Shown piece by piece: positions 1,376 to 7,273 of a DNA stretch of 64,000 nt. The translations under genes and the position numbers were made by a program. How positions within the stretch are numbered: the stretch's first letter is position 1; every line of letters begins with the position of its first letter. Source of the DNA: Escherichia coli (GTDB lineage Bacteria > Pseudomonadota > Gammaproteobacteria > Enterobacterales > Enterobacteriaceae); the NCBI RefSeq assembly GCF_003018255.1, contig NZ_CP027440.1; one strand, given 5' to 3'. The notes under the pieces are model-generated. The model was given only the letters and a program-made list of their open reading frames with translations. It was not told the origin of the DNA and did not search any database.

Positions 1376-1738
1376 ATGCTCATAGATTTGGTTTTACCTT
1401 ACCCGCCGACGGTGAACACTTACTGGCGACGCCGTGGCAGCACATATTTTGTATCAAAAGCCGGGGAGCGTTATCGCCGGGCAGTGGCGCTTATTGTTCG
1501 CCAGCAGCGACTGAAATTAAGCCTGTCCGGACGGCTGGCAATAAAAATTATTGCAGAGCCACCGGATAAGCGCCGCCGTGACCTGGACAATATTCTGAAA
1601 GCACCGCTGGATGCGCTGACGCACGCGGGGTTGTTAATGGACGATGAGCAGTTTGATGAAATCAATATTGTACGTGGCAAGCCAGTATCTGGTGGACGGC
1701 TGGAGATAAGAATTACAGAGGTGGGTGTGCATGAATAA
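1376..1738 (+). CDS. rusA: Holliday-junction resolvase RusA
   Basis: 120-aa product of typical RusA length, with acidic DLDN motif; located immediately upstream of Q. Confidence 0.85.
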   Translation: MLIDLVLPYPPTVNTYWRRRGSTYFVSKAGERYRRAVALIVRQQRLKLSLSGRLAIKIIAEPPDKRRRDLDNILKAPLDALTHAGLLMDDEQFDEINIVRGKPVSGGRLEIRITEVGVHE

Positions 1739-2396
1739 CCAGTATTTACAGTTTGTTCGTGAGCAACTCATGATTGCCACTGCGGATCTTAGTGGGTCGA
1801 CAAAAGGCCAGCTGGAAGTCTGGCAGGAAAATGCCCTGTTCGATACAGGGCGTTACAGACGCAAAAAAATTCGTTACCGCGATGAGGTAACCGGAAAAAT
1901 GATCACGCGGGATAATCCCCCGATCCCGGGCAAACAATCACTGGCGAAAGGCTCATCAATTGCCCTGGTCAGTCCGGTTGAGTTTTCGACATCATCATGG
2001 CGACGCGCCGTTCTGTCTCTTGAAGAACATCATAAAGCCTGGCTGCTGTGGTGTTACAGCGGTAGCATTTGCTGGGAGCGTCAGATCGCGATAACGCAGT
2101 GGGCGTGGACTGAATTTAATGCTCAATCCGGTACCAGAAAAATTGCAGGAAAAACTCTGGTGCGCCTGAAGACGTTGATCTGGTTGGCGGCGCAGGCGGT
2201 AAAAGCTGAGTTTTTTGGTGGGGAAGGCTACGAATACCAGGAACTGGCGTTACTGGTGGGAGTAACAACCAAAAACTGGTCCAAGACATTTACTGGTCAC
2301 TGGGTTGCAATGAAACACATTTTTCATCGGCTGGATAGTGAAGCTTTATTGTTGGTGGAGGGAACACGTTCAAAACAAAAGGCGGCATTTTCATAG
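1731..2396 (+). CDS. Q: late-gene antiterminator Q
   Basis: ATG at 1731 overlaps the rusA stop; ~221-aa protein in the canonical Q position, followed by a promoter plus short-transcript terminator (pR'/tR'-like). Confidence 0.7.
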   Translation: MNNQYLQFVREQLMIATADLSGSTKGQLEVWQENALFDTGRYRRKKIRYRDEVTGKMITRDNPPIPGKQSLAKGSSIALVSPVEFSTSSWRRAVLSLEEHHKAWLLWCYSGSICWERQIAITQWAWTEFNAQSGTRKIAGKTLVRLKTLIWLAAQAVKAEFFGGEGYEYQELALLVGVTTKNWSKTFTGHWVAMKHIFHRLDSEALLLVEGTRSKQKAAFS

Positions 2397-2403
2397 CAAA
2401 GTA

Positions 2404-2432
2404 TTGCAAAAGTAGATAAAAAGGCATATATT
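2404..2432 (+). promoter_or_regulatory. candidate late promoter pR' (TTGCAA-17 nt-TATATT)
   Basis: Sigma70-like -35/-10 with 17-nt spacer directly downstream of the Q stop. Confidence 0.5.
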
Positions 2433-3884: not shown

Positions 3885-4943
3885 ATGTTTAATACTGTAA
3901 AAATATCCAGTTGTGAGTTAATCAACGCTGACTGCCTGGAATTTATCCGGTCGTTACCCGAAAATTCTGTTGACCTGATAGTCACGGACCCGCCGTACTT
4001 TAAAGTGAAGCCTGAGGGCTGGGATAACCAGTGGAAGGGCGACGATGACTACCTGAAGTGGCTGGACCTGTGTCTGGCGCAGTTCTGGCGGGTGCTGAAA
4101 CCTGCCGGAAGTCTTTACCTGTTCTGTGGCCATCGCCTGGCATCTGACATTGAAATCATGATGCGTGAACGCTTCAGTGTGCTGAACCATATTATCTGGG
4201 CAAAGCCGTCCGGACGCTGGAACGGGTGCAACAAGGAAAGCCTGCGGGCGTATTTCCCCGCCACAGAGCGCATTCTGTTCGCGGAACATTATCAGGGGCC
4301 GTATCGCCCGAAAGATGCCGGGTATGAGGCGAAGGGCAGGGCACTGAAACAGCATGTGATGGCCCCGCTGATTTCTTACTTTCGTGATGCGCGTGCTGCC
4401 CTGGGGATAACGGCAAAACAGATAGTGGATGCCACAGGAAAGAAAAACATGGTGTCGCACTGGTTCAGTGCCAGTCAGTGGCAGCTACCGAACGAAAGCG
4501 ATTATCTGAAATTACAGGCGCTGTTTGCCCGGGTGGCAGAAGAGAAGCATCAGCGGGGGGAACTGGAGAAGCCCCACCACCAGCTGCTGGAGACGTATAC
4601 TTCACTGAACCGGCAGTATGCGGAACTGCAGAGTGAATATAAGCATCTGCGGCGGTATTTTGGCGTGACGGCGCAGGTGCCGTACACGGATGTGTGGACG
4701 CATAAACCGGTGCAGTACTATCCCGGGAAACATCCGTGCGAAAAACCGGCAGAAATGCTGCAGCAGATAATCAGCGCGAGCAGTCGTCCGGGTGACCTGG
4801 TTGCAGATTTTTTCATGGGGTCGGGTTCGACAGTCAAAGCCGCGATGGCGCTGGGGCGTCGTGCAACTGGCGTTGAGCTGGAGACTGAACGTTTTGAGCA
4901 GACGGTCAGGGAAGTTCAGGATTTAGTCAGTCAGAACGGATGA
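3885..4943 (+). CDS. DNA methyltransferase (N6-adenine/N4-cytosine class, DPPY motif)
   Basis: 352-aa ORF with catalytic DPPY motif (IVTDPPY) and C-terminal AdoMet-binding FxGSGS-like motif (FFMGSGST); no adjacent restriction gene seen. Confidence 0.85.
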   Translation: MFNTVKISSCELINADCLEFIRSLPENSVDLIVTDPPYFKVKPEGWDNQWKGDDDYLKWLDLCLAQFWRVLKPAGSLYLFCGHRLASDIEIMMRERFSVLNHIIWAKPSGRWNGCNKESLRAYFPATERILFAEHYQGPYRPKDAGYEAKGRALKQHVMAPLISYFRDARAALGITAKQIVDATGKKNMVSHWFSASQWQLPNESDYLKLQALFARVAEEKHQRGELEKPHHQLLETYTSLNRQYAELQSEYKHLRRYFGVTAQVPYTDVWTHKPVQYYPGKHPCEKPAEMLQQIISASSRPGDLVADFFMGSGSTVKAAMALGRRATGVELETERFEQTVREVQDLVSQNG

Positions 4944-4983: not shown

Positions 4984-5059
4984 GGCCCTTTAGCTCAGTG
5001 GTGAGAGCGAGCGACTCATAATCGCCAGGTCGCTGGTTCAAATCCAGCAAGGGCCACCA
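4984..5059 (+). tRNA. tRNA with CAT anticodon, ileX-like (tRNA-Ile2, lysidine) rather than Met
   Basis: 76-nt cloverleaf folded by hand: acceptor GGCCCTT/AAGGGCC, anticodon loop CTCATAA, T-loop TTCAAAT, 3' CCA encoded; close to remembered ileX sequence. Confidence 0.8.
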
Positions 5060-5068
5060 TATCACATA

Positions 5069-5145
5069 CCGCCATTAGCTCATCGGGATAGAGCGCCAGC
5101 CTTCGAAGCTGGCTGCGCGGGGTTCGAGTCCTCGATGGCGGTCCA
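5069..5145 (+). tRNA. tRNA-Arg (anticodon TCG)
   Basis: 77-nt cloverleaf: acceptor CCGCCAT/ATGGCGG, anticodon loop CTTCGAA, T-loop TTCGAGT, CCA encoded; 9 nt after the first tRNA. Confidence 0.75.
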
Positions 5146-5423
5146 TTATCTGCATTATGCGTTGTTGGTTCTGATGAGTGAATCATTGTCTTTTGAGCAA
5201 CAGGCTATCATATAAGATAGCCTCAGACTTCCTTGTTTATTCTCGCCGGATGCTTCGTAGATATTTGCAGGCATCTGTATGCAGGGGTATTATTGCGGCA
5301 TATATCATCCGGAAAAATAAAAACTACATGCTGATCCGGAGATGATAGTTACAAGTCCTCCCGGATCCCGCATATTTACTATATTTTATAGATAATTGTT
5401 CTTGTTAATATGGAGATGGATAA

Positions 5424-5852
5424 ATGTATTGCCGTGCTGTACCTGTTCTTGTTTTGATATTAGCCAGTCTGACAACTGGCTGCACAAAAGATGTATCGAC
5501 AAATAATCATGATGCTTCTCTGTATCACTCAGATAAATTAATAACGTCGCAAAAATTGAGCTCATCGGAACGTACCCCTGATGCCAGTGAAGAAATCCGG
5601 CAGTATGCCATTCAGGTCAGGAAAGCCATAGAAGAACAGTTAAAGGATGCGAGTAAGTATTCAGGAAAAGAGTGTTCACTGAGAATGTATATGGCCCCGA
5701 ATGGTCTTCTGCTACGGGTTAAAAGAGAAAGCGGTGATCCCGATTTATGTCGTGAAGCGATGAATGCAGTAAAGAATGCTGATATACCATCACCACCGTC
5801 TTCAGGAGTATATAAAGCATTTAGAAATGGCGTGCTGGATTTTAAACTCTGA
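5424..5852 (+). CDS. lipoprotein with TolA C-terminal (domain III)-like domain
   Basis: Signal peptide ending in LTTGC lipobox-like motif; C-terminal ~85 aa (GKECSLRMYMAPNGLLLRVKRESGDPDLCREAM..IPSPPSSGVYKAFRNGVLDFKL) aligns with remembered E. coli TolA C-terminus; GGAG RBS. Confidence 0.75.
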   Translation: MYCRAVPVLVLILASLTTGCTKDVSTNNHDASLYHSDKLITSQKLSSSERTPDASEEIRQYAIQVRKAIEEQLKDASKYSGKECSLRMYMAPNGLLLRVKRESGDPDLCREAMNAVKNADIPSPPSSGVYKAFRNGVLDFKL

Positions 5853-5987
5853 CAGGGGGAGAAGATTTTCTCCTGTCCTGATGATTTTGGGGCGCTGGAA
5901 AGATATTGTGCTGTGAAGTGTTAAATCCCTCACAATTCAGTAAGTTGACAGTTGCCTGTCAGACTGAGCATTTGTTAAAAAAATTTC

Positions 5988-6165
5988 GCATGGTGAATCC
6001 CCCTGTGCGGAGGGGCGACTGGTGAACGGTATGATCTCTTTGATGATCGTAAGCGAGAATACGCGGGTTTGGTGTCACCGGGCTGAACTCACCGGGAGGC
6101 ACCCGGCACCATGCTCATGGTGATACAGAAATGCGGCTTCAGCCCCTCTCCGGAGGGGCTTTCTT
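5988..6165 (+). ncRNA. candidate structured sRNA, repeat family A copy 1
   Basis: Promoter-like TTGCCT-18-TAAAAA, then 5' CAUGGUG, hairpin CCCCU-GUGCGG-AGGGG, hairpin CCGGG-AGGCA-CCCGG, 3' CACCAUG pairing back to the 5' end, and terminator GCCCCTC-TCCG-GAGGGGC plus T-run. Confidence 0.45.
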
Positions 6166-6171
6166 ATGGAC

Positions 6172-6240
6172 AAAAAAAGCCCGCGCTGGGAGACGCGGGC
6201 GGCAAGGAATAAACAATAAAACGTGAAGTAATACTTCAAC
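6172..6240 (-). ncRNA. candidate antisense sRNA, family B copy 1
   Basis: Minus-strand TTGCGC-18-TATTAT promoter (plus 6247-6276), ~70-nt transcript with internal hairpin GAAGT-ATT-ACTTC, ending at terminator GCCCGCG..CGCGGGC plus T-run. Confidence 0.45.
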
Positions 6241-6312
6241 TGGCGAATAATACCCGACAGTAATCACTCTGCGCAATAGCGTGGCCTTTTTCGAATTGCG
6301 GGCTGTAGTCTC

Positions 6313-6484
6313 CCTTCTGCCGGGTGTCCTGGTTGCAGATTTCTTCATGGGGTAGGGTTCGGCAGTTAAAGCAGCGATGGTGCTGGGGCGTCGTGCAACT
6401 GGCGTTGAGCTGGATACCGGGCGTTTTGAACAGACTGCGCAGGAAATCAGGGATGTATTTAGCGGGAGCGGTTTGCAGAAGTAA
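6313..6484 (+). pseudogene. 3' fragment of a DNA methyltransferase gene (duplicate of the 4781-4943 region, in-frame TAG)
   Basis: ~170 nt nearly collinear with the 3' end of the intact methylase gene (DLVADFFMG..GRRATGVEL..), interrupted by a stop; lacks the 5' 90% of the gene. Confidence 0.7.
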
Positions 6485-6547: not shown

Positions 6548-7273
6548 ATGGATGTTGCCTGCTCTGTGGTCCTGATTCGCTATCCGATAGATATTTTTCT
6601 TGAAAAAGAAAAAGTTTCACTCGATGCCGGAAGTGTTATGCTTGTTGCCAGAAATATAAGAGGGCTTTTCTGTGCTTATGCCGACAGAGTGAAAATGGCA
6701 GATATAAGTAACAGCGTCGTCAATCAGTATCTGGAAAGGGAGTGTGAACTGACGGAGTATACACCGACAAAAATGCCTCTTTATTTGATGTCTGATATTT
6801 ACAATACGGAACTGGCGGAGGCTTTAATAACCCAGCATAGTGAATCCAGTGATACTTTGAAGGATTTCTCTGTTATAACCGCATTTTCATGTATCTCCTT
6901 ATTTGCAACAGACAGACGTCTGCCATTATTTTTGTCCGGTGCTGTAAATAATATCAGCTGTAAAGTAAGGGCTATAATTCAGACCGACATATCGGCAGGC
7001 TGGATGCTTGGTGTGATTGCATTACAATTGCATATGAGCGAAAGCTTGTTGAAGCGAAAACTTAAGGATGAAGGTTATAGCTTTAGTCGGTTGTTGCTGG
7101 AGGAGCGAATGCGTGTTGCTGTTAATCTTGTATGTTTCCAGCGAGAGTGTGGACAAGCGATAGCGGAAAAATGTGGTTACTCAAGTAAGTCCTACTTCAT
7201 TTCTGTATTTCACCAGTATTATGGTGCACCACCTGAGAGCTATGCATATTTGCAGAAAGCAGACGTTATCTGA
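6548..7273 (+). CDS. AraC/XylS-family transcriptional regulator (cargo gene)
   Basis: 241-aa ORF with C-terminal dual helix-turn-helix typical of AraC family (..LKDEGYSFSRLLLEERMRVA..IAEKCGYSSKSYFISVFHQYYGAPPESY); start codon uncertain. Confidence 0.7.
   Translation: MDVACSVVLIRYPIDIFLEKEKVSLDAGSVMLVARNIRGLFCAYADRVKMADISNSVVNQYLERECELTEYTPTKMPLYLMSDIYNTELAEALITQHSESSDTLKDFSVITAFSCISLFATDRRLPLFLSGAVNNISCKVRAIIQTDISAGWMLGVIALQLHMSESLLKRKLKDEGYSFSRLLLEERMRVAVNLVCFQRECGQAIAEKCGYSSKSYFISVFHQYYGAPPESYAYLQKADVI

Follow-up and report, generated by a model that had tools for sequence, protein, structure and literature searches.

A predicted lipoprotein with a TolA domain III fold in the stx slot of an Escherichia coli lambdoid prophage, a candidate decoy for bacteriocins and filamentous phages

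We analyzed a stretch of 64,000 nucleotides from Escherichia coli (contig NZ_CP027440.1; hereafter, the window), focusing on a gene at positions 5424 to 5852 of the plus strand whose 142-residue product is a predicted lipoprotein with a domain related to domain III of TolA (TolA-III). A near-identical annotated locus, in strain OkiPb01697, is a lambdoid prophage in which the genes follow one another in the order antiterminator Q, two hypothetical genes, a DNA methyltransferase, two tRNAs, the TolA-like gene, a methyltransferase fragment, a helix-turn-helix (HTH) gene of the AraC type, the SASA esterase gene nanS-p, holin, lysozyme, spanin, Rha, a "TonB family protein," and HNH and terminase genes. 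The TolA-like gene and the parts of its product are located as follows.

5412..5415, plus strand: Shine-Dalgarno-like GGAG, 8 nucleotides upstream of the ATG, read from the sequence
5424..5852, plus strand: coding sequence of the 142-residue predicted TolA-domain-III lipoprotein, with an ATG start and its stop codon at 5850-5852
5424..5483, plus strand: predicted signal peptide with the lipobox L-T-T-G-C, from a PROSITE-type lipobox pattern
5481-5483, plus strand: codon of Cys20, predicted to be lipidated and to begin the mature protein; the +2 residue is Thr
5484..5579, plus strand: predicted disordered tether, residues 21-52 (about 32 residues), with pLDDT below 50 and relaxed dN/dS
5580..5849, plus strand: TolA domain III, residues 53-142, with the disulfide cysteines C84 and C109
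5832..5846, plus strand: strand β3, V-L-D-F-K, the equivalent of TolA P416-K420 by alignment

A sequence search of the PDB aligned residues 54 to 141 of the protein with residues 333 to 420 of E. coli TolA over 88 residues without a gap (the TolA residue number is the query number plus 279). Every E. coli TolA-III entry was matched, among them 1s62, 3qdp, 2x9a, 1tol, and 9k49, with E values of 2.8e-25 to 1.3e-23, and 45 of 89 positions (51%) are identical. The Pfam family PF06519, "TolA C-terminal," was matched with an E value of 1.5e-22, next to a weak match to TonB_2. In an AlphaFold2 model built from the family alignment, residues 1 to 50 are disordered (pLDDT below 50), and residues 52 to 141, modeled with pLDDT above 90, form a domain with the topology helix, two strands, helix, short helix, strand. 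The top Foldseek match of this model is 3qdr_A, the E. coli TolA-III, with a target TM-score of 0.91 and a root mean square deviation (rmsd) of 1.4 Å; the TolA domains of Vibrio and Pseudomonas and the TonB domains rank lower. Both cysteines of the TolA-III disulfide are retained (C84 and C109). The original prediction, made from the sequence alone, had described a predicted lipoprotein aligning residue for residue with TolA-III and had proposed pairwise alignment and structure prediction as a check; the translation is as it was quoted there, the lipobox is present, and the check, with an E value of about 3e-25 and the Foldseek superposition on 3qdr_A, came out in its favor. The resemblance is well above chance, and a genuine TolA domain III fold is confirmed.

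The remainder of TolA has no equivalent in the phage protein. Neither domain I, the membrane anchor coupled to TolQR, nor domain II, the long helix that spans the periplasm, has a counterpart in the 142 residues, which instead comprise a lipobox signal peptide and, at residues 21 to 52, a segment predicted to be disordered. A protein lacking domains I and II does not qualify as a TolA ortholog, notwithstanding the name that PGAP gives to WP_000271628.1, the product of the identical gene (gene name "tolA," product "cell envelope integrity protein TolA"). This name results from passing the cutoff of TIGR02794, "tolA_full" (score of 75.9 versus 59.45), which is achieved through the C terminus alone, at positions 262-361 of 362. 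The NCBIfam equivalog model PRK09510 fails, with a score of 102.1 versus a cutoff of 213 over model positions 298-386 of 387. Domain III of E. coli TolA (residues ∼325 to 421; 1S62, 3QDP, 1TOL, and 3QDR) is homologous, has the same fold, and shares the disulfide and the LDFK motif, whereas the phage protein is AT-rich in its coding sequence, is prophage-borne, and carries a signal peptide and a short tether in place of domains I and II. The gene lies within a lambdoid prophage and outside the tol-pal operon (ybgC-tolQRA-tolB-pal-cpoB). The domain belongs to the TolA-III family, and the protein itself is not a TolA.

The N terminus, MYCRAVPVLVLILASLTTG followed by C, conforms to the PROSITE-type lipobox rule with a signal peptide of 19 residues, and the PS51257-type pattern [LVI][ASTVI][GAS]C matches MYCRAVPVLVLILASLTTGC. 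The lipobox cysteine is invariant across the family alignments, in every lineage. In E. coli, an aspartate at position +2 of a lipoprotein is a signal for retention in the inner membrane (the "+2 rule"). In a wider set of 54 predicted lipoproteins of this family, Asp never occupies this position, and the median length of the tether is 26 residues. The lipobox predicts lipidation, and from the absence of Asp at +2 we predict a location in the outer membrane.

Strand β3 of TolA (A415-K420) accepts an added strand from TolB, from the N1 domain of the phage protein g3p, and from colicin N; the substitution D418P or K420P abolishes the binding of all three and yields a full tol phenotype, and loss of the TolA-TolB β3 contact is accompanied by periplasmic leakage (PMC4339652). 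L417, D418, F419, and K420 of this strand are all identical in the phage protein, and the conservation of β3 among 53 lipoprotein-type relatives is at least equal to that among 55 full-length TolAs. Colicin A binds to TolA's opposite side, at L375-P380, K368, K379, and K396 (PMC3365938), and these contacts are partly retained in the phage protein, in which K379 and K396 are present. As for the strength of these interactions, PMC4339652 gives TolA affinities of 1 μM for colicin N and ∼40 μM for TolB, values that would favor invaders over the host partner.

The surroundings of the gene in the prophage were compared with those of stx in phage 933W, for which the following features of the window are needed.

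1731..2396, plus strand: antiterminator Q gene, from the PGAP annotation of the near-identical locus and the list of open reading frames
2404..2432, plus strand: candidate late promoter pR', TTGCAA-17-TATATT, starting 8 nucleotides past the Q stop codon
4984..5145, plus strand: two tRNA genes, one with a CAT anticodon and one Arg-TCG, matching the ileZ and argN tRNAs that precede stx in 933W
5264..5293, plus strand: weak sigma-70-like site, TTTGCA-18-TATTAT, a 9/12 match and no better than chance in the region
5959..6171, plus strand: first STnc100 (RF02076) element, with a terminator-like hairpin, 6141-6160, at its end

The pR'-like site is followed by a hairpin and a T-run at ∼2483-2509 (read by eye), and together they parallel the annotated layout of pR', qut, and terminator in 933W. 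Given that the pR'-like site lies directly after Q, the TolA-like gene should belong to the Q-dependent late transcript. In 933W, the order is pR', tRNAs, stxAB, an STnc100 element following stxB, and nanS-p; in the window, it is pR'-like site, tRNAs, TolA-like gene, STnc100 (5959-6171), and, farther on, nanS-p and the lysis genes. The two orders match, so the TolA-like gene occupies precisely the stx slot, as the original prediction had supposed when placing it in the cargo region between Q and lysis. The G+C content is 37 to 43% over 5100-5900, compared with 50 to 57% in both flanks. The idea that STnc100 is the leader of pR', which would leave the gene outside the late operon, was rejected because in 933W the element follows stxB, far from pR'. 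A gene of CP-933O that was induced 32-fold in a study of EDL933 with ciprofloxacin, and that had been linked to "TolA," is a tail fiber protein in the table of that paper and was not used here as evidence of expression.

The gene had been presented as a singular find, a view that does not hold: its family is large and already has annotations, albeit under the wrong name, in hundreds of genomes. In 5,426 complete E. coli genomes, megablast found the window lineage at full length in 122 and the mEp460-type cassette at full length in 776, and the window gene had a match of any kind in 894; from the restriction of matches to these 894 genomes, it follows that the gene has no nucleotide-level similarity to the host tolA. 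At least 16% of the complete genomes contain relatives. These form three E. coli lineages with 65 to 70% mutual identity, all of which retain the lipobox Cys, Thr at +2, C84 and C109, and the C-terminal VLDFK. Among the three lineages, dN/dS is 0.23 to 0.30 for the domain and 0.41 to 0.89 for the tether, and the domain is under purifying selection. A mosaic allele found on IMG/VR contigs (∼6001-6423), in which the N-terminal two-thirds derive from the window lineage and the C-terminal third from lineage b, indicates recombination within the gene. Variants of 156 to 163 residues (P0019-P0029 and P0036) have a frameshift just before the β3 strand and end in ...PAPLRRKYIKYFKMGCWILNP..., pointing either to decay of some gene copies or to sequencing errors in short contigs.

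Beyond complete genomes, a search of IMG/VR with a six-sequence family alignment yielded 63 contigs. Those with informative flanks all have the gene between Q and the holin gene, on the late strand; in the mEp460 lineage, it is located 1.2 kb upstream of the holin gene. Flanking the mEp460-type cassette are, 30 bp upstream, a promoter match of 10/12 that includes a perfect TATAAT and, immediately before the holin gene, a terminator-like hairpin, which is a moron layout. Prophages of the mEp460 type encode two tandem TolA-III lipoproteins (in mEp460_ev081, locus coordinates 6001-6429 and 6580-6975); the second copy, the same gene as WP_001453090 on pO157, is divergent and ends in GFDMRG versus LDFKP, and the two copies may differ in ligand specificity. 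The same slot in a lambdoid prophage of Salmonella is occupied by the gene of a lipoprotein with 42% identity.

When 1.8 billion cluster representatives were searched exhaustively, 303 relatives emerged. Among the 150 listed, a lipobox is present in 47 of the 75 short representatives (100 to 200 residues) versus 3 of the 59 long TolA-like ones. In a neighbor-joining tree, the short lipoproteins are spread over many deep branches, most of them separate from the long TolAs, in a crude topology that is beyond resolving a single from a multiple origin of the lipoprotein forms. One relative, a 135-residue lipoprotein TolA-III on a JGI metagenome contig (P0052; 8001-8408), has a ClC channel and an OpuA-type ABC transporter as chromosomal neighbors and no phage or plasmid genes within 8 kb, so that the family is not confined to mobile elements. 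Members have been mentioned in passing in the literature, as the Cronobacter prophage gene ESA_03048 (PMC2833190) and as "TolA and TonB family proteins" of a Klebsiella cloacin plasmid (PMC10269471).

Relatives were found by tblastn on 1,326 plasmids, with Klebsiella (672) and Escherichia (549) contributing most of them, and these plasmids are without phage lysis genes. Three plasmid types were inspected (IncR-type, pO157, and a 10-kb ColRNAI plasmid). The ColRNAI plasmid, NZ_CP043584 from K. pneumoniae, encodes a cloacin-like bacteriocin together with immunity and release functions and, at 762-1495, a 123-residue lipoprotein TolA-III followed immediately by a TonB C-terminal domain with a signal peptide, the gene of which overlaps the TolA-III stop codon. 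This TolA-III/TonB pair and the bacteriocin operon are divergently transcribed. Among the plasmid versions, the commonest is the 144-residue lipoprotein of the IncR plasmid pKp-CTX-M (6406-7435); its gene lies directly downstream of one for a secreted thioredoxin-fold protein of the CxxC kind (motif CVYC), which may serve the TolA-III disulfide. Pairing of TolA-III with TonB is common to the bacteriocin plasmid and the window prophage, in which the TonB gene is located as follows.

16087..16419, plus strand: predicted TonB C-terminal-domain lipoprotein of 110 residues, with the lipobox LVMGC and a match to TonB in the PDB at an E value of ∼3e-16

A second energy-transducer mimic at this position had been part of the original prediction, and the lipobox and the PDB match agree with it. 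The gene follows the lysis genes, at the position where lambda has bor, and relatives of its product occur in phage 21, in Stx1a phages, and in a Klebsiella phage.

Our working hypothesis, which we hold with about even confidence, is that the TolA-like protein is a decoy, kept unenergized at the outer membrane, that gives tolerance to group A bacteriocins and to Tol-dependent filamentous phages. Signal peptidase II would cleave the pre-lipoprotein at Cys20, and the tether of ∼32 residues would hold the disulfide-bonded TolA-III copy in the periplasm just below the outer membrane, where colicin translocation domains leave the porins and g3p arrives. There, the β3 edge of the copy (LDFK) would catch ligands as it does on TolA, namely, the N terminus of TolB, the N1 domain of g3p, and the translocation domain of colicin N. 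Since TolA domains I and II are absent, the copy could not connect to the TolQR motor, and because of this missing link, a bound ligand would be stuck at the outer membrane in an unenergized complex. Against Ton-dependent agents, the TonB-domain lipoprotein that this prophage also encodes would act likewise. Lipidation, capture of ligands, expression from the lysogen, and protection of the cell are the inferred elements of this scheme. A decoy is favored by the presence of the family on nonlytic plasmids, by its association with a bacteriocin plasmid, and by the recurrent pairing of TolA and TonB mimics, two proteins that share little beyond being import routes used by colicins and phages. Purifying selection on the domain is also in its favor. 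These comparisons, together with the intact β3 strand, the absence of Asp from +2 across the family, and the promoter-like and terminator-like sites of the mEp460 lineage, make a function in superinfection exclusion or colicin tolerance more plausible.

Several observations weigh against this hypothesis. The TolA-like gene is downstream of the pR'-like site and would be cotranscribed with the late genes, and protection is of little use to a cell about to lyse. The promoter-like site of its own that the window gene possesses occurs at chance frequency, and a terminator immediately after the gene was rejected, as the hairpin at 5853-5877 has a z score of -1.06 versus shuffled sequences and is without a T-run. 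A decoy that binds TolB would also disturb the Tol-Pal system of the host. On the colicin A side, K368 is changed to Tyr, and D377 and P380 are both changed to Arg. When the N-terminal peptide of TolB was fused to the domain in AlphaFold2, the peptide was modeled as a β-strand with a pLDDT of only ∼50 to 70, in a run with no control and with an output from which the partner strand is not readable. The protein matches only phrog_5772 in PHROGs (E = 1e-57), of "unknown function," and nothing in PADLOC; no sequence membership in described superinfection-exclusion or defense families (Cor, Llp, and the PADLOC systems) was found with these two resources. Finally, full-text searching of the literature turned up no functional work on TolA-III lipoproteins from phages or plasmids.

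The late position of the gene suggests a different role, which we consider unlikely, namely, that the protein, transcribed shortly before lysis, antagonizes Tol-Pal in the late phase by capturing the TolB N terminus and blocking the TolA-TolB interaction, so that a leaky, vesiculating outer membrane aids lysis or the release of virions or outer-membrane vesicles. The Q-to-holin placement on the late strand in the informative IMG/VR loci, the short distance to the holin gene in mEp460, and the pR'-like site directly after Q, as annotated in 933W, are all expected of such a factor, as is the full tol phenotype with periplasmic leakage caused by loss of the β3 contact (PMC4339652), and the bacteriocin plasmid that bears a homolog also has a release/lysis gene. 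An antagonist of this kind does not account, however, for the homologs without nearby lysis genes, of which there are hundreds on plasmids (IncR, IncF, and pO157 types) and at least one in a chromosome, or for a TonB C-terminal-domain partner that has no obvious envelope-weakening role. Moreover, the phage already encodes a holin, an endolysin, and a spanin, the mEp460-type cassette has promoter-like and terminator-like signals of its own, and TolA-TolB binding is weak (∼40 μM). If this explanation were nevertheless true, the gene would represent a new accessory lysis or vesiculation factor in the stx slot.

We find it quite improbable that the protein instead modulates the host envelope at steady state, in lysogens and in cells carrying the plasmids, by acting on Pal mobilization, vesicles, or envelope stress signaling with a benefit for fitness or virulence that has nothing to do with colicins or phages. 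Such a role explains neither the joint travel of TolA-III and TonB C-terminal copies nor the enrichment on mobile elements of the colicin-rich Enterobacteriaceae. It would be compatible with the ordinary chromosomal neighborhood of P0052, with the many deep lineages and the frequency of lipoboxes among the short representatives listed, and with the IncR version, which is paired with a thioredoxin-fold CxxC protein and not with a bacteriocin gene. Lastly, a functionless captured tolA fragment, or a true TolA as the PGAP name and the TIGR02794 score would have it, is effectively refuted by the architecture (142 residues, a lipoprotein signal peptide replacing the anchor, no domain II, and matches confined to the C-terminal end of TIGR02794 and below the cutoff of PRK09510), by the conserved added lipobox, which is unexpected in a dead fragment, by the divergent G+C composition and the dissimilarity to host tolA at the nucleotide level, by purifying selection on the domain, and by the prophage context, away from the tol-pal operon.

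The decoy that we favor has precedents in the laboratory. Periplasmic TolA-III and TonB C-terminal fragments reportedly conferred tolerance to the corresponding colicins and phages, with some tol-like leakiness, in work by Levengood-Freyermuth et al. in 1993 (J Bacteriol 175:222) and Bouveret et al. in 2002 (Biochimie 84:413). As in the mechanism proposed for the phage protein, these fragments place an uncoupled ligand-binding domain in the periplasm; they were soluble, overproduced, and artificial, whereas the phage protein is natural, mobile, predicted to be lipid anchored, and under purifying selection. By this analogy, the phage protein would be a naturally occurring counterpart of the laboratory TolA-III decoy, able to move horizontally. 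Cor (φ80, N15, and mEp167) and Llp (T5) are small phage lipoproteins of the outer membrane that face the periplasm and, by binding and plugging the outer-membrane receptor FhuA, block a route by which competing phages and colicins are imported. They are similar in kind to the TolA-like protein, a predicted phage outer-membrane lipoprotein for which route blocking is proposed, and have no sequence relation to it; they plug a receptor, whereas the phage protein would mimic the periplasmic tip of an energy transducer. The lambdoid morons bor and lom as well as stx are likewise cargo of the late region with a shifted G+C content. They encode unrelated protein families, and the TolA-like gene shares the slot of stx2AB in 933W. 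For Bor, lysogen-specific expression is documented. A reciprocal precedent is the immunity conferred by g3p of Ff phages: periplasmic g3p-N1 has been proposed to sequester TolA, with colicin A resistance and a 4-log drop in phage uptake (PMC10424213). The same contact, between TolA-III β3 and a ligand strand, is blocked in that case, with protection against colicin A and filamentous phage, but with the roles exchanged: g3p-N1, a ligand copy, saturates the real TolA, and the phage protein, a TolA copy, would soak up ligands.

Colicins, klebicins, and several phages enter enterobacteria through two gateways, TolA and TonB. We also put forward, more tentatively and at somewhat less than an even chance, that exported, motor-less TolA-III and TonB tips carried by mobile elements of Enterobacterales (lambdoid prophages, pO157, IncR-type plasmids, and small bacteriocin plasmids) constitute a general and so far unrecognized immunity against group A and group B bacteriocins and against Tol- and Ton-dependent phages, whose translocation epitopes they would intercept immediately below the outer membrane. 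Related genes occur in about one-sixth of the complete genomes of E. coli and on over 1,300 plasmids, so that such an immunity, if true, could explain part of the broad multicolicin tolerance seen in natural isolates. It would be a new natural mode of tolerance to bacteriocins and phages, unlike receptor loss, receptor plugging by Cor or Llp, or cognate immunity proteins, and it would spread horizontally with Stx-type prophages, pO157, and Klebsiella resistance plasmids, a point that bears on bacteriocin and phage therapies. It would also correct a widespread database mislabel, since PGAP calls these lipoproteins of 120 to 145 residues "cell envelope integrity protein TolA."

The cargo region of the window has other features of interest. 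The tRNA gene at 4984-5059 (plus strand) is called Met (CAT) by ARAGORN, and PGAP annotates the identical gene as tRNA-Ile, like ileZ of 933W, the CAT anticodon of which is presumably modified so as to read AUA. Five STnc100 elements, scoring 120 to 172 bits, are present on the plus strand between the TolA-like gene and nanS-p (5959-6171, 7931-8126, 8190-8399, 8460-8659, and 8721-8910); four of them are in tandem, and at least the first ends in a terminator-like hairpin. STnc100 also flanks cargo genes of mEp460 and of one Salmonella prophage and may mark boundaries where cargo cassettes get exchanged. The 3' end of the DNA methyltransferase gene (4788-4939) is repeated with 82% identity downstream of the TolA-like gene, at 6320-6471, where PGAP calls a pseudogene fragment, and the tRNAs, the TolA-like gene, and the first STnc100 element look like a block inserted by recombination between two phage modules. 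Prophage-borne AraC-like regulators exist in enterohemorrhagic E. coli (EHEC), and the 241-residue AraC-family regulator encoded at 6548-7273 (plus strand; Pfam HTH_18, 6e-12, and HTH_AraC), in a second low-G+C stretch of the cargo region, may be a regulator of this EHEC type.

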